Positions 1-11,928 are shown, numbered from the stretch's first letter. The stretch is 11,928 nucleotides of DNA from a virus (IMGVR_UViG_2585427787_000004:1-11928); one strand, 5' to 3'. The notes: generated from the letters alone by a model not told the origin. Numbers and translations are program-made.

Positions 1-556
1 CCCCCTCGCCATCAATATCTTCCGGAAAACGGTCATAATCCGTCAGCGCCACGCATTTATAATCTGATGAGGACATGATATTGACTGACGGCCAGCCGAT
101 TTTCAGGTAGTTACCAGCAAGGAATGTTCTGTCATAAACGTTGTTGTCATTTTTGTTCGGACTCAGGCGACTGACCACTTCCGGGCTGACGCGAAACGTT
201 CTGGCGAGTCGTTTTTTGGAGTGTTCGCGGGCTTTTTCCTCCGTCATCTGAATGATCAGCATATCAGCAGGATCGCAAATCACGTTGTAAATCACCCAGC
301 CGTCAATCAGGCCGATAGTCTTGCCGGTTCGTGCCGGGCCAACAAATATCACTGCGTCGTATTCACGCGAGGCCAGGCAGTTCATCGGCTCAATAACATA
401 CGGTGCCACCAGCGGATCCCACGGGACTGAGTTCCCTGCCCCCATGGGCACCCGCATATACTGAGCAACGGCATCAGCAACCCGCATTCGTCTCGGTGCG
501 CGAAGGATATAACCTGAATCGGTTCGTGCTGCCTTTGCGGTTTCCTGATTCAGCAT
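1..556 (-). CDS. Phage terminase large subunit (lambda gpA-like), N-terminal part only; gene continues past the window start
   Basis: Minus-strand frame opens with ATG at 556..554 (MLNQETAKAARTD...) and stays open to position 1. Translation contains a Walker-A-like P-loop (VIFVGPARTGKTIGLIDGWV) and overall resemblance to the N-terminal ATPase region of lambda gpA. Start overlaps the stop of the upstream small-subunit gene (TAATG), the classic Nu1-A arrangement. Confidence 0.85.
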   Translation of the reverse strand, partial: MLNQETAKAARTDSGYILRAPRRMRVADAVAQYMRVPMGAGNSVPWDPLVAPYVIEPMNCLASREYDAVIFVGPARTGKTIGLIDGWVIYNVICDPADMLIIQMTEEKAREHSKKRLARTFRVSPEVVSRLSPNKNDNNVYDRTFLAGNYLKIGWPSVNIMSSSDYKCVALTDYDRFPEDIDGEG

Positions 557-1050
557 TACTCCTCCTGCTGTAATTCCTCCTCATCATCCGCACCTGCTTC
601 AGTCACCCGCAGGGCTATCTGATCGCGCAGATCATCAATAATGGACTGAACACGGCTCACAGCGGCAGGCTGCAGACCGCAGTCACGTTCCAGAATATCC
701 GGTAATGTCTCCAGCACCTGCACGACCGCTTTTGCCCAGATGGCAAACTCCCGTCTGACATCACTGGCCGAAATGAGTTGTGCCGTTTCCTGTTCGAACT
801 TAAGACGCTCACGTTCAGACTGATACCAGGCTTTGCGCTCATGCGCGTCCATTTCGCCTTCTGCAACCGGCGGTGGCAATGCCAGAAATGCCGACACAAT
901 ATCAACCACCCGATAAAGCTTGAGGTTGCTTTCATGCCCCCCTGCAACGGGTAGATTTTGCAGCCTTGCCGCAGCAGTCTGGCGATGTACACCTGACAGT
1001 GCCGCCAGTTGACTGATATTCAGCGTCAGATTTTTTAACTCTCGATCCAT
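556..1050 (-). CDS. Phage terminase small subunit (Nu1-like)
   Basis: 164-aa ORF from the six-frame track. N-terminal HTH-like segment (LNISQLAALSGVHRQTAAARLQNL) followed by an LYRVVDIVSAF segment parallels lambda Nu1 (KKQLADIFGASIRTIQNW...LYDSAAVIKWY); acidic C-terminus; sits immediately upstream of and overlapping the large subunit. Confidence 0.8.
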   Translation of the reverse strand: MDRELKNLTLNISQLAALSGVHRQTAAARLQNLPVAGGHESNLKLYRVVDIVSAFLALPPPVAEGEMDAHERKAWYQSERERLKFEQETAQLISASDVRREFAIWAKAVVQVLETLPDILERDCGLQPAAVSRVQSIIDDLRDQIALRVTEAGADDEEELQQEE

Positions 1051-1153
1051 ACCCGCTCCAGAATGTTTTAAACATGCATCTCGCGAACAACTTTAGGCAA
1101 ACGGTGTTAGTGATGAACAAAAAACAATCAAAATCGACACCATAAAAATAAAA

Positions 1154-1181
1154 CCACTGTAATATCAATCTATTACAGTGG
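1154..1181 (-). terminator. Perfect 11-bp inverted repeat (CCACTGTAATA-TCAATC-TATTACAGTGG) followed on the minus strand by a T-run; candidate rho-independent terminator or cos-region element
   Basis: Inverted repeat read directly from the sequence; plus-strand 1130-1153 is A-rich, so the minus-strand transcript has a U-tract right after the hairpin. Lies about 105-130 nt upstream of the Nu1-like start. Confidence 0.4.
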
Positions 1182-1632
1182 TGGTGATGACGAATAAAAT
1201 TTTAAAAACTAGCCTTTTTCCGCGACGCTCCCGCCCCGTGGCAGGCCACCCCACCGGAAGGACCCGCACAAATGAGAGCGTTTGTCATTAACATTTACAG
1301 ATAAGATGACGTACATCATTGAAACGCCATTCAGCCATATACCGGCAGCATTCGTAGTTGCACTCCGTAACTCTGCGACTAAGGTTAAAAACATGGCCCT
1401 CTTTTGCCACCGGCAAATCTTCAATGGATTTCCCCTGCCGGTTTTTTATTTTCGTCGATGCATAACATTGCATTTACATCAATAGCGGCTATTGTCATTA
1501 GTATGTTGCATCAATGCATGGGTGGTATTGGCGGTCTTCGCCGGCCGCTTCTGTGTAGCTGCTCCCTGTGACCGGTTTTTTATTTCTCACATTACAGCAA
1601 CCCCTTAGAGTGAAGGGCTGCTGTAATGCCTG

Positions 1633-2028
1633 TTACTCACGAATCAGGCGAGCACTCTTACTATTCATTTCAATACGCGAATACTGCGGTTTACCATCAA
1701 TGATGTCTGTCATTACGAACACCTCACCCGGCTGCAGTTCAACTGCACCTTCCGGTAATTTCATACCGGCAAATACCGGACAACCCGGATGACGATCATC
1801 TTCTGTTGCTTCCAGCATTGACTCACCAAACCACTCCGTCGTGGCGCGACCATCAGCTGCTTTGTAGTGGATCAAGTACTGGTTTTCGCCATCCGCATAC
1901 TGCGCGCGGGCTTTAACCTCACCCCATTCATCACTGATACGCATCTCCACCAGTTGAGACAACTCAAACTTAAACGGAGCAGCATCAGCACCAATTACAA
2001 TCGGTTTGTTTTCTGTTTTTTCCATCAT
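1633..2028 (-). CDS. Hypothetical acidic protein (131 aa), moron-position gene of unknown function
   Basis: ORF-track frame 1633..2076 trimmed to the tandem ATG ATG at 2028/2025, which is preceded by an AGGAGA Shine-Dalgarno (rev. comp. of 2031-2036). Protein is rich in D/E (MMEKTENKPIVIGADAAPFKFELSQLVEMRISDEWGEV...). No family recognised. Confidence 0.6.
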   Translation of the reverse strand: MMEKTENKPIVIGADAAPFKFELSQLVEMRISDEWGEVKARAQYADGENQYLIHYKAADGRATTEWFGESMLEATEDDRHPGCPVFAGMKLPEGAVELQPGEVFVMTDIIDGKPQYSRIEMNSKSARLIRE

Positions 2029-2199
2029 CGTCTCCTGATATCGAAGCCCGTCGCCGCACCGGGCACTGATCAACATTTGAGTATTCGCGGCGACAGAAAG
2101 AATTTATTTTATTGAGTAGCCACAAACACAGAATTTCATGCTTTCCGGACGCTGACGCACCCTTCATTTTTCAGCAAAATATTCTGCTCTTACAGGCGA

Positions 2200-2382
2200 T
2201 CAGTTCTGCAGACACTGCCGAACACCGTCGACAATTTCACAGACCTGAGACGCGGTATCGAAAAGCTGGCGCGCCTTATCCAGGCTGACGCACCCCACCA
2301 ATAAAAAAGGCACCAGTATCGCTACCAGTGCCCGTTTCACCGCCGTTCGCGGCATTCTGTGTGTCCAGTGTTTTCGCGCCAT
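2200..2382 (-). CDS. Small lipoprotein (signal peptide with lipobox LLVGC, roughly 30-aa Cys-containing mature part)
   Basis: Translation MARKHWTHRMPRTAVKRALVAILVPFLLVGCVSLDKARQLFDTASQVCEIVDGVRQCLQN. ATG at 2382 is preceded by GGTGGTGAT; an internal ATG at 2355 is an alternative start. Lipobox L-V-G-C after a hydrophobic stretch. Confidence 0.55.
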   Translation of the reverse strand: MARKHWTHRMPRTAVKRALVAILVPFLLVGCVSLDKARQLFDTASQVCEIVDGVRQCLQN

Positions 2383-2383
2383 A

Positions 2384-2497
2384 TCACCACCAACGCACAG
2401 CCCAAATCAGAACAGCGACCGCCACAAGGCGAATTGCAAAGGCCGCAGCCCTTGTCAAATCAAGGCTCGCGGGAGTTTCCATTTCAATACCTTTCAT
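2384..2497 (-). CDS. 37-aa peptide with C-terminal hydrophobic helix (MKGIEMETPASLDLTRAAAFAIRLVAVAVLIWAVRWW), below the ORF-track size cutoff
   Basis: Hand-translated from the minus strand. ATG at 2497 preceded by GAGGT Shine-Dalgarno at about 8 nt; stop TGA at 2386..2384, one base before the lipoprotein ATG, suggesting a coupled pair. Confidence 0.3.
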   Translation of the reverse strand: MKGIEMETPASLDLTRAAAFAIRLVAVAVLIWAVRWW

Positions 2498-2587
2498 AAT
2501 GGACAACCTCAAAAAGAATCTTTTATACTTTCCCACGAGGATTTTCTCCGTACTCACTAATCACAATTTCCCCTTTGACGTGAAAAC

Positions 2588-2627
2588 TAAAAACCCCGGA
2601 CTGTTCCCCCAGCCGGGGTTTTGTTTT
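2588..2627. terminator. Bidirectional rho-independent terminator hairpin (CCCCGG-A-CTG / CAG-CCGGGG) flanked by A-run and T-run
   Basis: Stem-loop read from sequence 2594-2618 with TTTTGTTTT on the plus side and AAACTAAAAA before it (U-tract for the minus strand). Located immediately 3' of the endolysin stop. Confidence 0.6.
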
Positions 2628-2629
2628 AC

Positions 2630-3007
2630 TTATCGCTTCAGCTGAAAGTGAGGTCCGTCTTTCAGCGTTTTCCAGTCCCCGCCCCATTCGATAGCGATCC
2701 CCAGCTCTGCGGCAGCCTGCTTAAATGCCTGTGCGATTTTCTCGTACAGAGGCCACTCCCATGACACCTGGCTGCCGATGTAGGCCACAACATCCACCGC
2801 ATCACCGGTCAGGTGGCGGCTGTTCATGGTCTGGCTTTTCCCTTCCGCAACCAGCTGTTTCTGGCGATACTTACTGCGCAGGCCTTCCGTAATACCGAAA
2901 TCAACCTCCGTCAGCTCCAGCGCACGGCGAACTACAGCAACCAGCTGTGGTTTGACACCCTCCAGATTTTTTTCACTGCGACGGCTGAATCTGAATTTAC
3001 CCGGCAT
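2630..3007 (-). CDS. Endolysin, peptidase M15 family (zinc D-Ala-D-Ala carboxypeptidase / L-alanyl-D-glutamate peptidase-like)
   Basis: Translation shows the M15 zinc-ligand pattern: SRHLTGDAVDV (H-x6-D) and C-terminal DGPHFQL histidine. The ORF track begins at a GTG (3013); I prefer the ATG at 3007, which has a GAGGTG Shine-Dalgarno about 5 nt upstream and sits 2 nt after the TGA of the preceding gene. Confidence 0.8.
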   Translation of the reverse strand: MPGKFRFSRRSEKNLEGVKPQLVAVVRRALELTEVDFGITEGLRSKYRQKQLVAEGKSQTMNSRHLTGDAVDVVAYIGSQVSWEWPLYEKIAQAFKQAAAELGIAIEWGGDWKTLKDGPHFQLKR

Positions 3008-3009
3008 AT

Positions 3010-3285
3010 TCACCTCAACAATGGAAAGATTTTTGTGACGTTCCCGCGTGCGTGTATCACCAGCACGCAGAACAGCAGGTTAAAAAACACTTCCAGCCAG
3101 CCCGTTGCTAACGGGCGACCACACAGATAGCTGAGGGGCGCAAAGGCATACAGCAGCATCAGCAGCCAGGCCAGCCATGACACCAGCGGTTTATGTCTGG
3201 AATCACGGCGACGATAAAAAAAGAGCGTCAGCACGATAACCGTGCATAACGCCACATTCAGCAATCCGGGAAGGTTACTTAACAT
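3010..3285 (-). CDS. Lysis-cassette membrane protein (91 aa, 2-3 predicted TM helices); possible second holin or antiholin
   Basis: Hydrophobic translation (LLNVALCTVIVLTLFFY...WLAWLLMLLYAFAPL...FFNLLFCVLVIH); ATG at 3285; tightly packed between the putative holin and the endolysin. Confidence 0.5.
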   Translation of the reverse strand: MLSNLPGLLNVALCTVIVLTLFFYRRRDSRHKPLVSWLAWLLMLLYAFAPLSYLCGRPLATGWLEVFFNLLFCVLVIHARGNVTKIFPLLR

Positions 3286-3667
3286 TGCCGCCTACTCCAC
3301 CCCGCAGGCGGGAGAACACACCGGACACCAGCGATGCAATATCCTGCTGGTGGATGAACGAGAGAATCTTCACCGACACCACCGAGACCAGCACCGCGCA
3401 AAGCGCATCTGCTGATGTACCGTCATACCCTGTTTTTGATGCAATCCAGGCTGACAGCACACGCGCTCCCAGCACGCCGACAATAAACGACACCAGAAAA
3501 TGCGCCACCACGCGCCAGACTGAAAGTGACTGCGGCATCGTTGCCACAAATAACGCCCCGGCGAACGCGCCAAACACAATCCCGAAATCCATCCCGGTAA
3601 ACAGCCCGAATACCGTCGCGCCACCCAGCGCCGCAGCCGTGCCGGAACCGGATAAGGGTTCAGACAT
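3275..3667 (-). CDS. Putative holin (130 aa, three hydrophobic segments)
   Basis: ORF-track frame 3275..3718 trimmed to the ATG at 3667, which is preceded by a strong AGGAGG Shine-Dalgarno (rev. comp. of 3671-3676). Three hydrophobic helices and a charged C-terminus; first gene of the lysis cluster upstream of the endolysin. Confidence 0.55.
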   Translation of the reverse strand: MSEPLSGSGTAAALGGATVFGLFTGMDFGIVFGAFAGALFVATMPQSLSVWRVVAHFLVSFIVGVLGARVLSAWIASKTGYDGTSADALCAVLVSVVSVKILSFIHQQDIASLVSGVFSRLRGGVGGNVK

Positions 3668-3755
3668 ACTTCCTCCTGAAAATAAAAAAAGGGCCACCAG
3701 CGACCCGTAAAAAAACACCCCGTCAAAGGCACCCGCAGATGCCTTTTGTGTGATG

Positions 3756-3908
3756 TTATTCAGATTTACGCAGTAAAGGCCGGAGCACGATCAGCGCCAT
3801 CGCCACCAGCACACCATCTGCCAGCACTGACATCAGTCGTCCGGTGAAATCCACCATCACTACCAGAAACAACAGGATGACAGCCAGCACAAGGCGCGCA
3901 CTTTTCAC
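3756..3908 (-). CDS. Possible 50-aa hydrophobic peptide (GTG start) just upstream of the holin; very tentative
   Basis: Hand-translated minus-strand frame: (GTG) KSARLVLAVILLFLVVMVDFTGRLMSVLADGVLVAMALIVLRPLLRKSE, GGAG about 8 nt upstream of the GTG. Below the ORF-track cutoff; no homology recognised. Confidence 0.2.
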   Translation of the reverse strand: MKSARLVLAVILLFLVVMVDFTGRLMSVLADGVLVAMALIVLRPLLRKSE

Positions 3909-4111
3909 AGGTACTGCTCCAGCGGCAACTGCAGCGCCTGCGCAATTTTCTTCAGTTGCGCTTCTTCTTCCTGACCGATACCGTCCTGGTCAGCGATATC
4001 CAGACACAGACACAGCACATTCACAGTATCATCAGTATCTGCAACATCAGTCAGCTGACGAAGGGCTTCAGCATTAGCAGAACGCGGTGGCGCTTCATAA
4101 CGGGCGCGGAT

Positions 4112-4137
4112 ATGAAAAAGGCCCGCCGAAGCGAGCC
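4112..4137 (-). terminator. Candidate rho-independent terminator after the tRNA cluster (GGCUCGC-UUCG-GCGGGCC followed by U-run on the minus strand)
   Basis: Hairpin read from plus 4120-4137 with A-run at 4115-4119 (U-tract on the minus transcript). Confidence 0.45.
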
Positions 4138-4151
4138 TGGAAAAATAAGCG

Positions 4152-4228
4152 TGGCGCGTTGTACTGGATTCGAACCAGTGACCGATTGCTTAGAAGGCAA
4201 TTGCTCTGTCCGGCTGAGCTAACAACGC
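4152..4228 (-). tRNA. tRNA-Arg (anticodon UCU), phage-encoded
   Basis: Reverse complement folds as a cloverleaf: acceptor GCGTTGT/ACAACGC, D-arm GCTC...GAGC, anticodon stem ATTGC/GCAAT with loop CTTCTAA (anticodon TCT), T-arm ACTGG-TTCGAAT-CCAGT, discriminator G, encoded CCA. Confidence 0.85.
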
Positions 4229-4241
4229 AGGGTACAGATAA

Positions 4242-4318
4242 TGGACCGCCATCGAGGACTCGAACCCCGCGCAACCAGCTTCGAAGGCTGGCGCTCTATC
4301 CTGATGAGCTAATGGCGG
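4242..4318 (-). tRNA. tRNA-Arg (anticodon UCG), phage-encoded
   Basis: Reverse complement: acceptor CCGCCAT/ATGGCGG (perfect 7 bp), D-arm GCTC...GAGC, anticodon stem CCAGC/GCTGG with loop CTTCGAA (anticodon TCG), T-loop TTCGAGT, encoded CCA. Confidence 0.8.
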
Positions 4319-4325
4319 TATGTGA

Positions 4326-4401
4326 TGGTGGCCCTTGCTGGATTTGAACCAGCGACCTGGCGATTATGAGTCGCTCGCTCTCACCACTGAGCTAAAGGGC
4401 C
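4326..4401 (-). tRNA. tRNA-Ile2-like (anticodon CAU; sequence resembles the E. coli lysidine-modified AUA-reading tRNA rather than tRNA-Met)
   Basis: Reverse complement GGCCCTTTAGCTCAGTGGTGAGAGCGAGCGACTCATAATCGCCAGGTCGCTGGTTCAAATCCAGCAAGGGCCACCA closely resembles, as I recall it, the chromosomal tRNA-Ile2 (ileX/ileY); anticodon loop CTCATAA. Confidence 0.8.
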
Positions 4402-4450
4402 GGGAGCAGAATAATAATGGTGCGTAATTAATTCTGCAATCTCATCCGTT

Positions 4451-5500
4451 TCAAACGATTAAATCCTGAACTTCCCTGACTGTCTGTTCAAAACGTCCGG
4501 TCTCCAGCTCAACACCAATCGCACAACGCCCCAGTGCCATCGCCGCTTTTACCGTTGAACCTGAACCCATAAAAAAATCTGCAACCAGGTCTCCCGGACG
4601 ACTGCTCGCGTTGATTATCTGCTGCAGCATTTCTGCCGGTTTTTCGCACGGATGTTTCCCTGGATAGTACTGCACCGGTTTATGCGTCCAGACATCGGTG
4701 TACGGAACCTGCGCCGTCACACCGAAATACCGCCGCAAATTTTTATATTCACTCAGCAGTTCCGTATACTGCCGGTTCAGCTCACTGTATGTGCTGACCA
4801 GCTGGTGGTGTGGCTTTTCCAGTTCCCCGCGCTGATGTTTTTCTGCCGCAACACGCGCAAACAACGCCTGCAATTTATTGTAATCACCCTCGTTCGGTAA
4901 CTGCCACTGACTGGCACCAAACCAGTGCGAAGCCATGTTTTTCTTTCCGGTGGCTTCCGCTATCTGTTTTGACGTTATTCCCAGTGATTTACGCGCATCA
5001 CGAAAGTAAGAAATCAGCGGGGCCATGACGTGCTGTTTTAGCTCGCGCCCCTGCTCCACATAGCCATCATCTTTCGGGCGATACGGTCCCTGATAATGTT
5101 CTGCAAACAGAATGCGCTCTGTTGCCGGAAAATACGCCCGCAGACTTTCCTTATTGCACCCGTTCCAGCGTCCGGACGGCTTCGCCCAGATAATGTGGTT
5201 CAGCACATTAAAGCGCTCACGCATCATGATTTCGGTGTCAGATGCCAGGCGATGACCACAGAACAGGTAAAGACTTCCGGCAGGCTTCAGTACCCGCCAG
5301 AACTGCGCCAGACACTGGTCCAGCCATTTCAGGTAATCATCGTCGCCCTCCCACTGGTTATCCCAGCCCTCGGGCTTCACTTTAAAGTATGGCGGGTCTG
5401 TGACTATCAGATCGACAGAGTTTTCCGGTAAGGTCTGGATAAACTCCAGGCAATCAGCGTTGATTAACTCACAACTGGATATTTTTACAGTATTAATCAT
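4451..5500 (-). CDS. DNA methyltransferase, beta-class amino-methyltransferase (probably N6-adenine); no adjacent restriction endonuclease seen
   Basis: 349-aa ORF. N-terminal catalytic motif IV DPPY (LIVTDPPYF) and C-terminal AdoMet motif I FxGxG (DFFMGSGSTVKAAMALGRCAIGVE); the IV-then-I order defines the beta class. Confidence 0.85.
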   Translation of the reverse strand: MINTVKISSCELINADCLEFIQTLPENSVDLIVTDPPYFKVKPEGWDNQWEGDDDYLKWLDQCLAQFWRVLKPAGSLYLFCGHRLASDTEIMMRERFNVLNHIIWAKPSGRWNGCNKESLRAYFPATERILFAEHYQGPYRPKDDGYVEQGRELKQHVMAPLISYFRDARKSLGITSKQIAEATGKKNMASHWFGASQWQLPNEGDYNKLQALFARVAAEKHQRGELEKPHHQLVSTYSELNRQYTELLSEYKNLRRYFGVTAQVPYTDVWTHKPVQYYPGKHPCEKPAEMLQQIINASSRPGDLVADFFMGSGSTVKAAMALGRCAIGVELETGRFEQTVREVQDLIV

Positions 5501-5650
5501 AGATCAATAAGCACTTCTCTGATAGGCTCATACCGCTTTTGCGCAAAGCAGATGGGCCTGAGGTTTGCTTGTGACCCCAACGCATGAGCAGATGGCTGGC
5601 AGGTGCCGCTAACACCCACCAGCCGCCCATTACCACAAATTAAAAAGCCT

Positions 5651-5848
5651 TCACTGCGGAAGGCGTCTGTAACAACCGAACTGATAATCTGCCAGACCCG
5701 CCATAACAAGCTGAGTCAGTATTAACTGGCAGCGTTCGCGTGAAAGGTAAGTATTCTGCGCAATTTCCCCGACGGTCGCCGGTTCGGTGATGCTTAATTC
5801 ATTAAACACCACTCTGGCGGTTTCGGTCATATCCTGCTGTTTTAGCAT
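5651..5848 (-). CDS. Small protein (65 aa) with helix-turn-helix-like segment; hypothetical
   Basis: ORF-track frame 5651..5971 begins at a GTG lying inside the terminator hairpin; trimmed to the first ATG at 5848 (alternative ATG at 5830). Translation MLKQQDMTETARVVFNELSITEPATVGEIAQNTYLSRERCQLILTQLVMAGLADYQFGCYRRLPQ. Confidence 0.4.
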   Translation of the reverse strand: MLKQQDMTETARVVFNELSITEPATVGEIAQNTYLSRERCQLILTQLVMAGLADYQFGCYRRLPQ

Positions 5849-5971
5849 GCCTTTTTCCCTTTTCCGGTTAACGTGACATACCAATACCTCTTGTCGAAAA
5901 AGCCAGCAAGCTGAAAGACCGGCATTCGCAACCACCAGCGCATTTAACGTCCTGTACCGCTTTTCGGGCAC

Positions 5972-5995
5972 AAAAAAACCCGCATAAAGCGGGTT
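5972..5995 (-). terminator. Rho-independent terminator immediately downstream of the Q-type gene (candidate tR')
   Basis: Stem AACCCGC-ATAAA-GCGGGTT (5977-5995) with A7 run on the plus strand at 5972-5978, i.e. a U-tract after the hairpin on the minus transcript. Confidence 0.6.
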
Positions 5996-6054
5996 CTTTC
6001 AGGTGTCCATGTCTGCTATTCGCCTCGCGGTATAGCTTTGCGAAGCGTAGCTGG

Positions 6055-6083
6055 ATTGAAACAGTTTATGCGTAAAAAATCAA
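6055..6083 (-). promoter_or_regulatory. Candidate late promoter (pR'-like): -35 TTGATT, 17-nt spacer containing TG, -10 TTCAAT on the minus strand
   Basis: Hexamers read from the reverse complement of 6055-6083; the position between the Q-type gene stop and the terminator matches the lambdoid pR'/qut-tR' arrangement. Hexamer match is weak, so this is positional inference. Confidence 0.3.
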
Positions 6084-6634
6084 GACATTTTTTGAGCAAA
6101 CGATTCTCGCATAGGGATGTATAGCGCATATTCAGCAACAGCTAACCAATTAGCAATTCGCTTTTCGCATGTACTAAAACACCATTCCGGGTGCACCTCA
6201 TTCAACAATTCAGCCATTTTGCGTTTACTCATCCCCCGCCCTTCGTACCTTTGCCGCAGGATATCAATCAATCCAGGATAACGTGCAAGCGCTTTACTTA
6301 TCACCCCATCAATGCGTAACGCCTCTGCATCAGTACAGTGAGACAACCAGCTCTTCTGTCTGCCAGCGATCATCTCTCGCAAGAATGCTTCCAGCTCTGG
6401 TTTATCAATCCCTGACTCCCTGATTCTACGCAGGGCTTCATTGATTGCGGTTTTTGTCAGTTTTTTGGATGCCAGCAACTGATTGAACATATTTCCTGGT
6501 TTGCCACCACCTATATACGACCAACGCCCCCACATCCGTAATTTCCCCTGGATCCAGACGGCTTCCAGCGTTTTTAGACGTAAATGCTCGCCGCTTTTGC
6601 CTGTAATTTCCGGGTATATCATATTTACGATCAC
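6080..6634 (-). CDS. Putative late-gene antiterminator Q (Q-family protein)
   Basis: 184-aa ORF (GTG at 6634; first ATG at 6622). Contains an LRMWGRWSYIGGG segment resembling the WGAW segment I recall from phage 21/933W-type Q proteins, and sits in the canonical Q position: after rusA, before a promoter-terminator pair and the lysis genes. Confidence 0.6.
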   Translation of the reverse strand: MIVNMIYPEITGKSGEHLRLKTLEAVWIQGKLRMWGRWSYIGGGKPGNMFNQLLASKKLTKTAINEALRRIRESGIDKPELEAFLREMIAGRQKSWLSHCTDAEALRIDGVISKALARYPGLIDILRQRYEGRGMSKRKMAELLNEVHPEWCFSTCEKRIANWLAVAEYALYIPMRESFAQKMS

Positions 6635-6996
6635 TCACTCTCAATTTTGTAAATCTTCACGCCCAGCCGCCCCCCAGGAACGCGCTGACCGCGCACAATA
6701 TTGATTTCATCAAACTGCTCGTCGTCTATGAGAAGTCCGGCATGCGTCAGCGCATCCAGTGGTGCTTTCAGGATATTGTCCAGGTCACGACGACGTTTAT
6801 CCGGTGGCTCTGCAATAATCTTTATCGCCAGCCTTCCGGACAGGTTTAATTTCAGCCGCTGCTGGCGAACAATAAGCGCCACATCACGGCGATAACGCTC
6901 ACCGGCTTTTGATACAAAATATGTGCTGCCACGACGTCGCCAGTAAGTGTTCACCGTTGGCGGGTAAGGCAAAACAAATTCTATGCGTTCAGTCAT
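6631..6996 (-). CDS. rusA: Holliday junction resolvase RusA
   Basis: 121-aa translation with the RusA catalytic signature (PPDKRRRDLDNILKAPLDAL) and N-terminal LPYPPTVNTYW motif; size and motifs match E. coli RusA. Start ATG abuts the upstream stop (TGAATG). Confidence 0.9.
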   Translation of the reverse strand: MTERIEFVLPYPPTVNTYWRRRGSTYFVSKAGERYRRDVALIVRQQRLKLNLSGRLAIKIIAEPPDKRRRDLDNILKAPLDALTHAGLLIDDEQFDEINIVRGQRVPGGRLGVKIYKIESE

Positions 6997-8052
6997 TCAT
7001 GCTTTCCACTTCAGGACACCCGAATTTCTCGCGTGCATTAAAAAACGAATCAGCAACAACAGCTGGCTGCCGTGTTTTTCTTCAAAATCTTTTACCCCGG
7101 CGTGTAGTTCGCTATGGCATTTACGGCACAGCGGAATAACAAACAAATCATCAGCCTTTGTTCCCATCCCTCCCAGTCCATGACCAATGATGTGATGCGG
7201 ATCATCTGCCTGATTACCACACGTCATGCATTTCTGCGTTTTTACCCAACGCGTGTATACAGGCATCTCTTCCCGTCGTGGTTTCTGGCGCTGGAGATAC
7301 TGAGCCGGTGACTCCGGATCAACGGCAATGCTTACCACCGTCTTTTCCTGTGGCGGGTTTTGCTGGTGGGCGTGAGGCAGTAGCGCAATATTTTTTGTGC
7401 GCTGCTTCAGCATGCTGGTGGCGGTCTGCTCTCCCGGCACGATGTCGCTCTCGCGGTATACTGAGCGAATTTTTTCCGCGCGTAATCCCAGTGAACGACG
7501 TAACACCGTCTCCGGTAGTGCGTCCGCTACGTTATTTATGGTTGCCCACCAGGATAATTCAGCCAGCGATAATTCCCGCTCCTGCGTGCCATTCATTGCG
7601 TGGCGGATGACATCAATCATCCATGCTGACAGGTTTTGGTGAGCAAGCTGCCCGAGTGATTCGGAAGTCTGGTTACGCAGCTGGTTGTCGCAGTGCCAGC
7701 ACAACACCATCGCGCCGGTACCGTAACGATGTATGACGGTTTCACTGTGATGGTAGTCACCATGAGGCCACTGGCAGGATTTAACGTGGCGTAACAGCCA
7801 GTCAGACAATGCACCAGCACCACCAGCAGCACGAATCACCCGCTCATCGCTGAAAAATGGCAGTAATGATTTATCCTCCGCCAGCGGCTGGCGAACAGCA
7901 GGAACGACTCCGGACGGCAGACCGCGCATGCTTTTCGGTTCCGGCTCCACCAGAACTCGAGGGTTATGAAATACCTGCATGGATTCACGGCCCGGTTTTA
8001 GCACCACCAGCCCAAGTTCCGGTACCGGAACAGGTCGAAGTAATACCCGCAC
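6997..8052 (-). CDS. Phage DUF968-like protein (YdfU-like) with C-terminal Cys/His HNH-type zinc-finger motif
   Basis: C-terminal CMTCGNQADDPHHIIGHGLGG...CRKCHSELH motif. The ORF track starts at ATG 8124, which would overlap the upstream gene by about 70 nt; I prefer the in-frame GTG at 8052, preceded by GGAGG with 4-nt spacing and lying 1 nt after the upstream TAA. Confidence 0.65.
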   Translation of the reverse strand: MRVLLRPVPVPELGLVVLKPGRESMQVFHNPRVLVEPEPKSMRGLPSGVVPAVRQPLAEDKSLLPFFSDERVIRAAGGAGALSDWLLRHVKSCQWPHGDYHHSETVIHRYGTGAMVLCWHCDNQLRNQTSESLGQLAHQNLSAWMIDVIRHAMNGTQERELSLAELSWWATINNVADALPETVLRRSLGLRAEKIRSVYRESDIVPGEQTATSMLKQRTKNIALLPHAHQQNPPQEKTVVSIAVDPESPAQYLQRQKPRREEMPVYTRWVKTQKCMTCGNQADDPHHIIGHGLGGMGTKADDLFVIPLCRKCHSELHAGVKDFEEKHGSQLLLLIRFLMHARNSGVLKWKA

Positions 8053-8053
8053 G

Positions 8054-8326
8054 TTACCTCCAGATGCGTTGCTGGAATGTGCGGGACGGACGCGGTGGGC
8101 GTTCGGAATAAGGGAGCCTGACATAGATTATCCAGTGACGATAATCGAGGCTGAGGGCTTTCTTAATCTCGTATCCGCGTCTGCGGTAGTTATGAATTAG
8201 CCATTCGGCCTGTTCTTCAGTACATGGTGGGTGTTGGTACCAGTCGGTTTTAAATGCGTGTGAACGCCGCCCATGCCGGATGGCAAGGGCGGTATCAGAA
8301 TTGTGAAATTTGGTTTTGTGCGCCAT
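8054..8326 (-). CDS. Small basic hypothetical protein (90 aa); occupies the slot between the hok gene and the DUF968 gene
   Basis: ORF-track frame 8054..8485 reads through the terminator hairpin at 8408-8425 (the segment NPLRRVLFFP is the hairpin translated); trimmed to the first ATG downstream of the terminator at 8326. Translation MAHKTKFHNSDTALAIRHGRRSHAFKTDWYQHPPCTEEQAEWLIHNYRRRGYEIKK... Confidence 0.45.
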   Translation of the reverse strand: MAHKTKFHNSDTALAIRHGRRSHAFKTDWYQHPPCTEEQAEWLIHNYRRRGYEIKKALSLDYRHWIIYVRLPYSERPPRPSRTFQQRIWR

Positions 8327-8398
8327 CGGTTGTCTCTGCTGGCGCAGCAGGTGCCAGTTGTTCAGGCTGGCGTGCGAATTGTAAACCAGAATGCCAGG

Positions 8399-8425
8399 AA
8401 AAAACAAAACCCGCCGAAGCGGGTT
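8399..8425 (-). terminator. Rho-independent terminator downstream of hok
   Basis: Stem AACCCGC-CGAA-GCGGGTT (8408-8425), same stem sequence as the terminator at 5977-5995, preceded on the plus strand by AAAAAACAAAA (U-tract on the minus transcript). Confidence 0.6.
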
Positions 8426-8493
8426 AAGTGCGGGTGCGTTGAGGATGCCTGACTCATCAGAGGTGGCGAGGGATTTCTCCCTCACCTGGTCTC

Positions 8494-8649
8494 TTACTCC
8501 TCAGGTTCGTAAGCTGTGAAGACAGCGACCTCCGTCTGGCCGGTTCGGATTCGTACCTCGCAGAGGTCTTTCCTCGTTACCAGTGCCGTCACTATGACGG
8601 TTAAACAGATGACGATCAGGGCGATTAACATCGCCTTTTGCTGCTTCAT
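8494..8649 (-). CDS. hokD: Hok/Gef-family type I toxin (51 aa)
   Basis: Translation MKQQKAMLIALIVICLTVIVTALVTRKDLCEVRIRTGQTEVAVFTAYEPEE matches, as far as I can recall, E. coli HokD (RelF); typical Hok TM helix plus the conserved Cys/Tyr periplasmic tail. ATG at 8649 preceded by AAGGAG. An in-frame upstream ATG at 8706 gives a 70-aa extension (possible mok-like reading frame). Confidence 0.85.
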   Translation of the reverse strand: MKQQKAMLIALIVICLTVIVTALVTRKDLCEVRIRTGQTEVAVFTAYEPEE

Positions 8650-9050
8650 AGCCTGCTTCTCCTTGCCTTTCGGCACGTAAGAGGCTAACCTAGATTTGCC
8701 GTTCATAGATTGAGCCTCAGATTAATGTTAAACGTCTTGCAGGACGCGTAACGTTAACTGGGGCTTTTCTCTATCTGCCTTTTGGTGGCATGCCTGAGAC
8801 AGATAACCTCAAGCACCCGCAGTAATTTTACATAAAGGTTATGGTTCCTTTCAATAACTCAACAATTTCCCATCTAAATACTACTCATATAGTCATATAG
8901 GCTGGCGATAATTTAAAGATAAGACTCTCTCTTTTTCTCCACCACATAATGCATTACCAACGCAAAAGTTACCATGGTAATTATATCTTAACGAAAAATA
9001 CCCCGCGAACATATTCTACTCAACAAAAAATTTTGCGTACGCATTATTCT

Positions 9051-9079
9051 TTGTAGTATCTTAAGTATGTAATTATTTT
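9051..9079 (+). promoter_or_regulatory. Candidate sigma-70 promoter for the two-gene cassette (-35 TTGTAG, 17-nt spacer, -10 TATTTT)
   Basis: Hexamers read from sequence about 20-45 nt upstream of the ORF A ATG in an AT-rich leader; match is modest. Confidence 0.3.
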
Positions 9080-9097
9080 TTACAGGAAATTTTTGCA

Positions 9098-10012
9098 ATG
9101 GCTAGCAAGCGCTTTTTCTTCGATTTTTATCAATGTCACACTATAAGCACTGATACAAATGCAGGAGTTAATTCACCTGAAGCTGTTTTTTCAAAAATTT
9201 TTGAGTCATACAGCGAAGGCCGAGACAAAACTGTACGTAAAATAGGAAATAAACTAGTTGAAATGCGCTTCATGGAAAGAACCGACTATGGTTTCAGGGG
9301 AGTTATAGGAAAACACAGAACCAATAATCTCCCTCATGTTGCTGTAGCCGGAGGTGAAGAAAGAGAAATTAAACTTGAAATCAATGAAAACTTATTAGAA
9401 AAAGCTTATTTTCATTTTTATACCCAAGACTCAGTTTTAATAATTCAACGAAACAGACTCTGTTATGGCTGGTTGCTATTAAGTAAATATCTTTCCAACA
9501 GTTCACAAAATACAACTGTTAATCCCATCATTCAGACCAGTAGTTTAAAGTGGTTGATGCGTAATGAAGTTCGAATCAAAACTCTAGAAATCGGTATCGC
9601 TCGGCCAAAGAATGTGCAACTATATGAGGATGTTGAACATAACTTCAACAATGCATTGATAGCCACTCTAAATGGTACTAATTCTGCCAAAGTAAATCTT
9701 ACATTACGTGGGGATAGTCGTTCTGAAGATCCTGAATCTCGCTATCTAGGTTCTCAACTAAAAAGAGCCTTTAAAGAAACACTAGAGACTTTTGAGGTTG
9801 AAAAACTTAAACTAGAAACCCAAGACATTGAGACCGGTGTACAGCATCCTATCGATCTTGTAGCAGACAAATTAGTCTACTACACAGATGTTGAACTTGG
9901 AGGTAGGTATCCATTAGTTGGCAGCATTTGGAGCGCCTTAACTCTTGCAAAAGATAGTAAAGATGATGAATTGAAGGCATACTTTGGAGTAGCCAATCAA
10001 AGAGTTGATTAA
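9098..10012 (+). CDS. Hypothetical soluble protein, 304 aa (ORF A of the AT-rich cassette); no family recognised
   Basis: Long ORF with AT-rich codon usage, ATG at 9098 with a weak purine-rich stretch upstream. No Walker, HxH or other catalytic motif that I can assign with confidence. Followed 15 nt later by ORF B. Confidence 0.7.
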   Translation: MASKRFFFDFYQCHTISTDTNAGVNSPEAVFSKIFESYSEGRDKTVRKIGNKLVEMRFMERTDYGFRGVIGKHRTNNLPHVAVAGGEEREIKLEINENLLEKAYFHFYTQDSVLIIQRNRLCYGWLLLSKYLSNSSQNTTVNPIIQTSSLKWLMRNEVRIKTLEIGIARPKNVQLYEDVEHNFNNALIATLNGTNSAKVNLTLRGDSRSEDPESRYLGSQLKRAFKETLETFEVEKLKLETQDIETGVQHPIDLVADKLVYYTDVELGGRYPLVGSIWSALTLAKDSKDDELKAYFGVANQRVD

Positions 10013-10027
10013 TTTTGGAGCGATGGT

Positions 10028-10507
10028 ATGAAAAAGGGGAAATTGATAACTTTGTACAGTTATGGTTATAATTTAGCCTCTGTTGTTTTTTGTATCATCG
10101 CATGGCCTCTTTCTGCAAAGCTAAATTTTGCACAAATTCAGCCAATCGCTTCGGCCGTTTCTACATTTTCTGGGATATTATTTGGCTTTGTTTTAGGTTC
10201 GCTTACCTTGATTGCTTCAGCTAGAGATAATACGCTAATTAGAAATATAGGAAAAACTGGTTATTTGAAAAAACTGACCGAAGAAATGCACTCCACTATG
10301 GGATGGTTACTATCAGTTTGTATTATTTTTATCATTTTATTATTTTTCCCTGATACACTAAAGTTTAAATTCCCACTAGTAAAAGATGCCGACGAGCACA
10401 CATATGCCCAACTATTACTCCAAGTGGGAATTTTTTTCCTGCTTATTACATTTAAAAAATTTTATACTACCTGGTCGCGTCTAAAAGACATAACAAGGCT
10501 CATGTGA
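10028..10507 (+). CDS. Hypothetical small polytopic membrane protein, 159 aa, about four TM helices (ORF B of the cassette)
   Basis: ATG at 10028 preceded by GGAG at about 8 nt. Four hydrophobic segments (LASVVFCIIAWPL; IASAVSTFSGILFGFVLGSLTLIA; MGWLLSVCIIFIILLFF; YAQLLLQVGIFFLLITF) separated by short charged loops. Confidence 0.7.
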   Translation: MKKGKLITLYSYGYNLASVVFCIIAWPLSAKLNFAQIQPIASAVSTFSGILFGFVLGSLTLIASARDNTLIRNIGKTGYLKKLTEEMHSTMGWLLSVCIIFIILLFFPDTLKFKFPLVKDADEHTYAQLLLQVGIFFLLITFKKFYTTWSRLKDITRLM

Positions 10508-10512
10508 TATAT

Positions 10513-11037
10513 CTATAATTGCACATAAAAAGACAATCCTAACAATACTCCCATTGTAAGTTGTATATTCTTTCTTATTGTTCCATCTGAACATTTGTAC
10601 CTTCGTGCTATTGTACGCAAAGATATACCTATAACAAAATGAGCGATAATTAACTCATAGTCATCTATTCTATATTGTTTAAGCTTCAACATGCAGGTAT
10701 CAATCATACGACCTTCATCGTTGCCACACTGACGGCGTAATTTCTTACCATGAGGTACTACATCTTTATATTTATCAGCCACTTGCTGCCAGTTGATAGA
10801 ACTATTTCCAGCTGCAGCCCAAGCCCCCCAACTGTCCAAAATATCATATATATTAGCATTGCTATCCACCTTTTTTTTATATTCTTTTTTGAGGCAACCA
10901 AGAAGCATCCTGGCCATCGTTATTATTTCTATACTTGTAACTGATTCATAAGCATCAGGAGAAATAATCCTCCCATCACTTAATGCCCTTTCACTAAGAT
11001 TTGCTATTTCCAATAATCGTTCTTTAGTTATTTCCAT
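10513..11037 (-). CDS. Q-family antitermination protein paralog (phage 21/933W-Q-like), 174 aa from the ATG
   Basis: Track ORF starts at GTG 11049; the ATG at 11037 has a GGAGA Shine-Dalgarno. The C-terminal 100 aa parallel the 933W/21-type Q as I recall it: LDSWGAWAAAGN vs LERWGAWAANN, CGNDEGRMIDTCMLKLK vs CCDDDAMIICGCMARLK, YKCSDGTIRKNIQ vs HCCSDGYIGKRLQ. AT-rich codon usage. Confidence 0.65.
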   Translation of the reverse strand: MEITKERLLEIANLSERALSDGRIISPDAYESVTSIEIITMARMLLGCLKKEYKKKVDSNANIYDILDSWGAWAAAGNSSINWQQVADKYKDVVPHGKKLRRQCGNDEGRMIDTCMLKLKQYRIDDYELIIAHFVIGISLRTIARRYKCSDGTIRKNIQLTMGVLLGLSFYVQL

Positions 11038-11162
11038 TATTATCTCCACCGCCCTTTCGGGCGGCCTCCTGATGTTCTGAGGGTGCAGAAATCCCTCCGG
11101 TTAAGGATTAAATTTTATTTACAGTGCTGGATTTAATTATTCAGATTTGGATTATGCTTTCT

Positions 11163-11928
11163 GTAAGCGACTCGTCAGAACCGTATTGATATTTACTGAG
11201 AGCTCAGATCAACTTTCCAGGGCAACAGATCGCGTACCCGGTTTGCCGGCCAGTCCTGGATATGTTCAATGACGTAACGCAGCCACTTTTCTGGCTCCAC
11301 ATTGTTCAGACGGCATGTGCCGATCAGCGAGTACAACACCGCCGCATGTTCACCACCGCTGTCGGAACCCGCGAACATCCAGTTTTTCCGGCCTACGGCC
11401 ACTCCCCGTAAGGCGTTCTCTGCGATGTTGTTGTCGATTTCCACCCAGCCATTACTGCAGTACACGTTCAGTGCATCCCACTGTTTCAGCAGGTATGCGA
11501 ACGCTTTTGCCGTATCTGAGTGACGCGACAGTGTTTTCATCTGTTGCTGTATCCAGTCATACAGTGACTGCATCAGTGGCGCGGCTCTGGCTTTTCTTGC
11601 CGCCAGACGCTGTTCTGCTGAACAGCACCGGACCTCTGCCTCGATGGCATACAGTTCACCGATACGCTGCAGGGCTTCCGTGGTGATGTAGGTGGGCGCT
11701 CTTGCATGCACATCGTGGATTTTTCTCCGGGCATGAGCCATACACGCGGCTTCCGTTATTCTGCCGGATTCGTATAACGCCCGGTAACCACCGTAAGCAT
11801 CGGCCTGAAGCACACCGCTGTAACCGGCCAGGTGATTTTGTGGATGGATACCTTTCCGGTCCGGACTGTACGCGAACCAGACCGCCGGGGGCATCTGTGA
11901 ACCGGCGTTACGGTCATCACGGACGTAG
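11163..11928 (-). mobile_element. IS66-family insertion sequence, right-end portion (terminal repeat beginning GTAAGCG at 11163); element continues past the window end
   Basis: IS66-family terminal inverted repeats start with GTAAGCG; this motif sits about 30 bp beyond the stop of the IS66-type transposase ORF, the expected geometry for the tnpC-proximal end. Confidence 0.65.
11193..11928 (-). CDS. IS66-family transposase (TnpC/orf3), C-terminal part; N-terminus lies outside the window
   Basis: Translation has the characteristic IS66 TnpC segments ([56 protein letters not shown]). The frame stays open from the track start (11894) to the window edge. Confidence 0.8.

Follow-up and report, generated by a model that had tools for sequence, protein, structure and literature searches.

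A probable divergent RexAB-type module in a variable slot of a Qin/Rac-like prophage

Of the known phage-exclusion systems RexAB is the oldest, yet how it is triggered and how it works have still not been settled; to our knowledge, few homologs are known. The present study concerns a viral stretch of 11,928 nucleotides (nt; IMGVR_UViG_2585427787_000004:1-11928, hereafter the window), which belongs to a Qin/Rac-like lambdoid prophage whose genes read on the minus strand. On the plus strand, between the toxin gene hokD and a gene of the Q antiterminator family, the window carries a two-gene cassette encoding a DUF6731 protein of 304 amino acids (aa) and a membrane protein of 159 aa. This cassette is probably a very divergent RexAB-type phage-exclusion (abortive-infection) module, housed in a variable slot of the prophage.

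Lambda-type Rex exclusion is characterised by a dimeric A component that binds DNA non-specifically and by membrane depolarisation that cuts infection short, as in T4 rII exclusion. Lambda RexA (PDB 8TWQ) and RexB share ∼8% identity with the window pair, with no pairwise similarity. The lambda rex genes lie in the immunity region and are co-transcribed with cI, whereas the window pair is oriented opposite to the early operon and occupies the hok-Q interval. RexABpp of the Pseudomonas putida prophage P1 (PP_5643/PP_5644; Sci Rep 2026, PMC12894663), compared here by its published description, requires both genes for defence; its RexA binds DNA, and RexA overproduction leads to RexB-dependent membrane damage (PMC12894663). 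The Rex-like systems of actinobacteriophages (Sbash gp30/gp31, CarolAnn gp44/gp43) likewise exclude other phages and pair a membrane protein with a divergent, RexA-like dimer that binds DNA; in some of them, as in the window, the genes depart from the lambda arrangement in their orientation and in how far they lie from the repressor. Unlike the window protein, their RexA-like components are larger (337-372 aa), were found by BLAST from RexA, and belong to actinobacterial hosts.

The DUF6731 pair and its likeness to RexAB

The cassette consists of three features, given here with the guanine-plus-cytosine fraction (GC) of the first:

8836-9097, plus strand: upstream region of the cassette, AT-rich (GC 0.31)
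9098-10012, plus strand: putative rexA-like gene, encoding the 304-aa DUF6731 protein
10028-10507, plus strand: putative rexB-like gene, encoding the 159-aa membrane protein and following the rexA-like gene after a 15-nt gap

The 304-aa protein is a full-length match to the Pfam family DUF6731 (PF20505), scoring 47.6 bits over residues 1-268 where the gathering threshold is 27, and its RefSeq name is also DUF6731. Homologs amount to 42 clusters at 90% identity in a word search and to 804 clusters at 50% identity, almost all of 280-310 aa, in an exhaustive profile search (E ≤ 1e-3). The 159-aa protein forms a family of its own. The two genes constitute a strictly conserved operon: in all ∼30 loci examined the partner gene comes next after the DUF6731 gene, with a spacing of -19 to +32 nt, and the pairing is kept even in relatives at 25-32% identity and in hosts as distant as Geomonas. 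Pfam, NCBIfam, PHROGs and PADLOC list the cassette as of unknown function or miss it. A literature search with DUF6731 and the RefSeq accessions returned nothing relevant; it did not reach the work of Brenes and Laub (2025) on E. coli prophage defences.

Strict pairing, a RexA-like fold and a RexB-like sequence signal are directly supported. The 304-aa protein has the RdgC-like architecture of RexA, a split globular domain combined with a dimerisation domain. It matches CHL4, CENP-N, IML3, RdgC and the Corynebacterium glutamicum epimerase 3oh8, and is considered RexA-like because this set largely equals the structural relatives listed in the RexA structure paper (CHL4, IML3, RdgC and the C. 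glutamicum epimerase). When a profile of 68 DUF6731 sequences is compared with a profile of 29 RexA sequences (hhalign), a single full-length colinear alignment is obtained (P = 5e-4), in which D253, the sole invariant DUF6731 residue, is aligned with the near-invariant D226 of RexA; the two families have an Asp motif in common (PIDLIADR / AADILTD). For the partner, 24 of 27 family members match the RexB model of PADLOC, the best at E = 5e-6 and the window protein itself at E = 1.5e-3, with no competing model. Its AlphaFold2 model (predicted local distance difference test score, 78.6) consists of four long helices, as in the four-transmembrane RexB, and it is encoded directly downstream of the A component. 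The best viral fold matches of both proteins come from one uncultured phage, ctylc9, and the partner model shows a weak fold match (template-modelling score 0.54) to a 165-aa protein of the mycobacteriophage Sbash.

Several results weigh against a RexAB assignment. When the two proteins were compared directly with lambda RexA and RexB, neither hhalign with 32 sequences nor BLASTP yielded a match; the 68-sequence profile reached only P = 0.029 against the single RexA sequence, and the 304-aa protein does not match the RexA sequence family (Pfam PF15969, PADLOC PDLC02339), although the same PADLOC model finds lambda RexA at 9e-110. The profile-profile alignment itself carries a probability of only 31%. 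This value is far below the 98% HHpred link to RexA reported for the P. putida protein (PMC12894663), which suggests that RexABpp represents a different, closer branch; look-ups in the clusters of the closest Pseudomonas-like DUF6731 representatives found no P. putida member. Finally, the window pair does not lie in an immunity region: it stands between hok and the Q-family gene, with no adjoining repressor. RexA was not among the matches of PDB sequence and profile searches, and a fold search of the partner in BFVD gave weak matches and did not return lambda RexB. The sole PDB matches, weak ones to eIF2-alpha over 78 residues, were treated as chance and the relation was rejected.

An alternative is that the 304-aa protein is a membrane-anchored, RdgC-like modulator of recombination or replication, or else that the pair is an addiction module of the toxin-antitoxin type which keeps the mobile element stable, with no part in phage exclusion either way. 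RdgC (PDB 2OWL) is a much weaker match to the 304-aa protein than RexA and, unlike the window pair, is encoded by a housekeeping chromosomal gene that has neither a membrane partner nor a mobile AT-rich context. We regard this explanation as quite unlikely.

The contexts in which the pair is found elsewhere support a Rex-type role. In the Pseudomonas phage AUS531phi, a divergent Cro-like gene is followed by a CI-family repressor, the DUF6731 gene and its partner, which matches the cI-rexA-rexB layout of lambda. A second repressor-adjacent pair occurs on a viral contig (L029), where a repressor gene with HTH_3 and Peptidase_S24 domains precedes the DUF6731 gene in the same orientation, at a distance of 19 nt. 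In Endozoicomonas elysicola (L014:5767-12079), the pair belongs to an uninterrupted chromosomal defence island, with Septu PtuA/PtuB on one side and PDC-S52 (DUF6988) and then an Mrr-like nuclease on the other. Further pairs are found ahead of the lysis genes of a Mu-like prophage and beside resolvases in Photobacterium.

These same loci bear on the possibility that the pair tunes the life cycle of its own prophage, the DUF6731 protein binding DNA and the membrane protein acting as a modulator. The pair directly follows cI-type repressors in two phages and adjoins a Q antiterminator gene both in the window and in two Klebsiella-type prophages (L024 and L026). Moreover, lambda RexA acts on the bistable lambda switch without RexB, biasing it toward lytic growth (RexA paper). 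Yet the pair also occurs outside prophages, in the Endozoicomonas defence island and beside the Photobacterium resolvases, where there is no switch to regulate, and the membrane partner is kept in every locus. In lambda both roles are compatible. A purely regulatory function of the window pair seems unlikely.

The upstream region contains a promoter-like block with a -35 element (TTGCGT, 9033-9038), a -10 element (TATCTT, 9057-9062) and a ribosome-binding site (AGGA, 9084-9087) that is invariant in four cassettes, while the coding DNA is just ∼73% identical. A perfect 8-bp palindrome, GCGTACGC, at 9035-9042 (within 9023-9062) overlaps the proposed -35 element. A consensus promoter/terminator scan gave no excess over shuffled sequence and nothing directly upstream of 9098; it had not flagged this block, and the promoter is proposed because the block is conserved. 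The conservation suggests that the cassette may have its own regulated promoter, and the palindrome looks like an operator for some regulator.

As a RexAB-type module, the cassette would work by analogy with lambda RexAB and RexABpp, from which DNA binding, partner activation, membrane damage and the defence phenotype are extrapolated. The two-gene operon (8836-10560) would be transcribed from its own promoter, opposite to the phage early operon. The cytoplasmic 304-aa protein, probably a DNA-binding dimer, would sense a superinfecting phage and then activate the four-helix membrane protein, which would damage or depolarise the membrane. Both the infected cell and the phage would be stopped, thereby protecting the lysogen population.

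A nested cargo island between hok and an IS66-family element

To the right of the cassette, the window contains three further features, the last being the end of an insertion sequence (IS):

10513-11049, minus strand: Q-family antiterminator-like gene (RefSeq start 11037; Pfam Phage_antitermQ, PF06530, E = 2.8e-30; phrog_79)
11048-11162 (115 bp), minus strand: conserved prophage intergenic block, the right backbone flank, found in the nin-like region of many prophages
11163-11928, minus strand: end of an ISCro1-type IS66-family element, with the C-terminal part of the transposase at 11193-11894

Among 5,426 complete E. coli genomes, to which all genome counts refer, the two-gene cassette is present in 19, all of them human isolates, the Q-family gene in 68 and the conserved block in ∼2,548. 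Because these parts differ so in distribution, the island is nested and is not a single unit. In the 15 loci compared, the cassette pair is always lower in GC than its surroundings. The initial annotation had read the AT-rich segment as horizontally acquired cargo, and the data support it: the cassette is rare, its low GC recurs in every host examined, and in related prophages the slot differs, holding other genes or none.

In other strains the hok-to-Q slot contains unrelated AT-rich cassettes on the plus strand (GC 0.34-0.36). One prophage (L003, 5555-7019) encodes a 309-aa protein and a 182-aa membrane protein; that of enteropathogenic E. coli (EPEC) E2348/69 (L037, 1793-3943) encodes proteins of 363, 142 and 197 aa; both cassettes lie beside a related Q-family gene. 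The slot of a sequence type 131 (ST131) prophage (L038) holds solely small nin-type genes. The slot cargo of L003, L037 and a third prophage, L002, had no above-threshold Pfam or PADLOC match, and the L003 and L037 cassettes are of ‘unknown function’ in Pfam, PADLOC and PHROGs. The L003 pair was considered as a relative of the window pair and rejected, the comparison revealing no similarity. These two cassettes are candidate defence or moron systems not yet described, at what would be a hotspot for cargo. A literature search for a hok-Q hotspot found nothing relevant; by the present comparison, Qin/Rac-like prophages have a cargo slot in their hok-Q interval, with further unknown cassettes.

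The island and its borders are as directly supported as its rarity and mobility. In a sliding window, GC falls from 0.52-0.55 to 0.32-0.39 between ∼8700 and ∼11150; by segment it is 0.513 (1-8493), 0.360 (8707-11162) and 0.554 (IS). A two-breakpoint maximum-likelihood fit places the edges at ∼8820 and ∼11215, with a log-likelihood gain of ∼105 units over a model with no break. GC at third codon positions is 0.27, 0.31 and 0.28 in the three island open reading frames (ORFs), against 0.47-0.67 in nine flanking genes. The compositional break that the initial annotation had proposed is confirmed, and the three AT-rich ORFs that it counted are those at 9098-10012 and 10028-10507 (plus strand) and 10513-11049 (minus strand).

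The right edge, placed in that annotation at the IS66 end, is exact to the base: all 19 carrier genomes, which lack the IS at this site, match the window to 11162 and none beyond, and the IS end motif starts at 11163. The left edge had been set at 8707, but this coordinate is the start of the mok extension. Foreign DNA begins at ∼8836, because 8707-8835 is hok leader sequence, kept at 94-95% in island-free prophages. Direct repeats, which would mark a site-specific insertion, were searched for on both sides of the cassette and not found.

The Q-family gene and the cassette converge, their stop codons lying 5 nt apart, and the gene stands upstream of hok/DUF968/RusA. The usual pre-lysis position is taken by a DUF1133 gene (6080-6634), and the gene at 10513-11049 is the second Q-like gene of the prophage, and an AT-rich one. 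Its relatives, 70-74% identical at the protein level, flank the different cargo of L003 and L037. The Klebsiella-type prophages L024/L026 match window positions 9097-10860 at ∼73% nucleotide identity, a match that joins the cassette to the C-terminal two-thirds of the Q-family gene; in L026 the related Q, of 122 aa, is found in the canonical place between DUF968 and holin. The window gene has an extra N-terminal segment of ∼65 aa (phrog_3323), which it shares with the otherwise different 138-aa slot protein of L002. Immediately before its start codon lies a GC-rich hairpin, GCCGCCC-GAAA-GGGCGG, which might serve for termination or for RNA processing; the stretch upstream of the gene folds no better than its shuffles (z = -0.8).

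The conserved block includes the last 11 nt of the DUF4752 gene (stop codon 11152-11154), whose coding sequence in the relative L001 ends at locus position 11753. The IS is inserted 11 nt from this 3' end. Its assignment rests on a DDE_Tnp_IS66 domain (Pfam E = 3e-64), IS66_C and a terminal GTAAGCG at 11163, a single end being present in the window; 100% identical copies are annotated elsewhere as IS66-like ISCro1 transposase. None of the 19 carrier genomes has the IS at this site; ISCro1 inserted at 11163 at a later time, in an event unrelated to the cassette. The insertion cuts off the Q-family gene, hok, DUF968, RusA, the second Q-like gene (DUF1133) and the late genes from the early-right operon, whose replication genes and repressor region lie outside the window, and a polar effect could cripple prophage induction.

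The hok/sok locus and the K-12 relBE arrangement

The left neighbour of the island consists of two overlapping features:

8494-8649, minus strand: hokD toxin gene, with an in-frame mok extension to 8706 (Pfam HOK_GEF, E = 3e-23)
8644-8835, minus strand: hok/sok regulatory leader (Rfam sok, RF01794, at 8644-8818, 108.7 bits, full model)

This is a type I toxin-antitoxin locus with its Hok ORF, its mok extension and its sok/leader RNA element. The mok-hok ORF (8494-8706) encodes 70 aa; the HokD product of 51 aa is 100% identical to K-12 HokD, and the gene is annotated as hokD in the carrier genomes. The 8707-8835 part of the leader has a GC of 0.44, and a promoter-like site of the leader (TTGAAA-18-TAAAAT) is found at 8825-8854 on the minus strand. 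In the cassette-free prophages L002/L003 the leader is 94-95% identical, with homology ending at 8834/8835. The hokD gene and its mok/sok leader are thus outside the cargo.

In K-12 Qin (L008, 4025-4289, compared with window positions 8494-8835), the order is relB-relE-hokD. K-12 homology to the window ends at 8663, ∼14 nt upstream of the hokD start, and K-12 accordingly has no mok/sok leader. It is thus K-12 that lost its mok/sok leader to relBE, and the window hok locus is complete. A full hok locus, defined as at least 80% of its 342 nt, is present in 4,024 of the 5,426 genomes and the K-12 relE-hokD junction in 1,164, so the intact form is ∼3.5 times commoner; the K-12 relBE-hokD layout is a minority form with a truncated hok leader.

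The initial annotation had correctly noted that nothing RelE-like precedes hok directly: tblastn with K-12 RelB and RelE found no remnant in the window better than E = 2. Its further proposal, that a single foreign island replaced relB-relE upstream of hok and may now be silenced by H-NS, is highly improbable. K-12 Qin does have relB-relE-hokD, and a GC of 0.36 is low enough for a plausible H-NS target. However, full-leader genomes greatly outnumber those with the relE-hokD junction, and the leader that K-12 lacks is intact in the window. No remnant of relBE is present, and nothing in the window matches the 2.1 kb that precede hokD in K-12. In island-free relatives the site is occupied by small nin-type genes or by other cassettes instead of relBE, and the island itself is nested from parts of different distribution. 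The claim of relBE displacement is therefore withdrawn, and these findings correct the assumption that the K-12 relBE-hokD layout is ancestral or typical.

Prophage setting and implications for the RexAB class

The left part of the window, read from left to right, runs from the small terminase subunit to the endolysin and holins, and continues as follows up to hok:

4152-4401: three tRNA genes (Arg-tct, Arg-tcg and a CAT-anticodon tRNA)
between the tRNA genes and the DUF1133 gene: DNA methyltransferase
6080-6634: DUF1133 Q-like gene, in its usual place before the late region and lysis genes
6631-6996: RusA
6997-8124: DUF968, followed to the right by hok

A nearly identical IS-free prophage is L001 of the enterotoxigenic E. 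coli (ETEC) strain 504838, 98.8% identical over 2630-11162. Beyond the right border, L001 continues with DUF4752, DUF4406, DUF977, replication genes, YdaT, Cro, a LexA-type repressor and dicB, and further right with an exonuclease, an excisionase and an integrase. Left of 2630 the window is mosaic with respect to L001, with mere short patches at 90-92% identity. Three tRNA genes are present in the window, compared with two (Arg, Ile) annotated in the otherwise 98.8% identical L001.

A broader and doubtful reading joins three propositions: that the DUF6731 pair is a large missed branch of RexAB, that it is subject to a Q-coupled shut-off, and that the hok-Q interval is a general defence hotspot. 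Such a branch, overlooked by current defence finders, may span several bacterial phyla with ∼800 sequence clusters. Among the lambdoid prophages of enterobacteria, the pair may travel as a unit with the convergent Q gene. Q-driven antiterminated transcription at induction, running antisense through the cassette, may switch exclusion off, and the phage may thereby avoid aborting its own lytic growth. The L003 (309 + 182 aa) and L037 (363 + 142 + 197 aa) cassettes may be further undescribed systems.

If the cassette is indeed a divergent RexAB-type module, the class would be far larger and more widespread than annotated, extending outside the Gammaproteobacteria and counting ∼800 clusters at 50% identity, carried by lambdoid, Mu-like and Pseudomonas phages and present in defence islands. 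It would provide diverse sequences in which true conservation, for example of the Asp motif, can be compared, and PADLOC-type tools would under-call the RexAB class.

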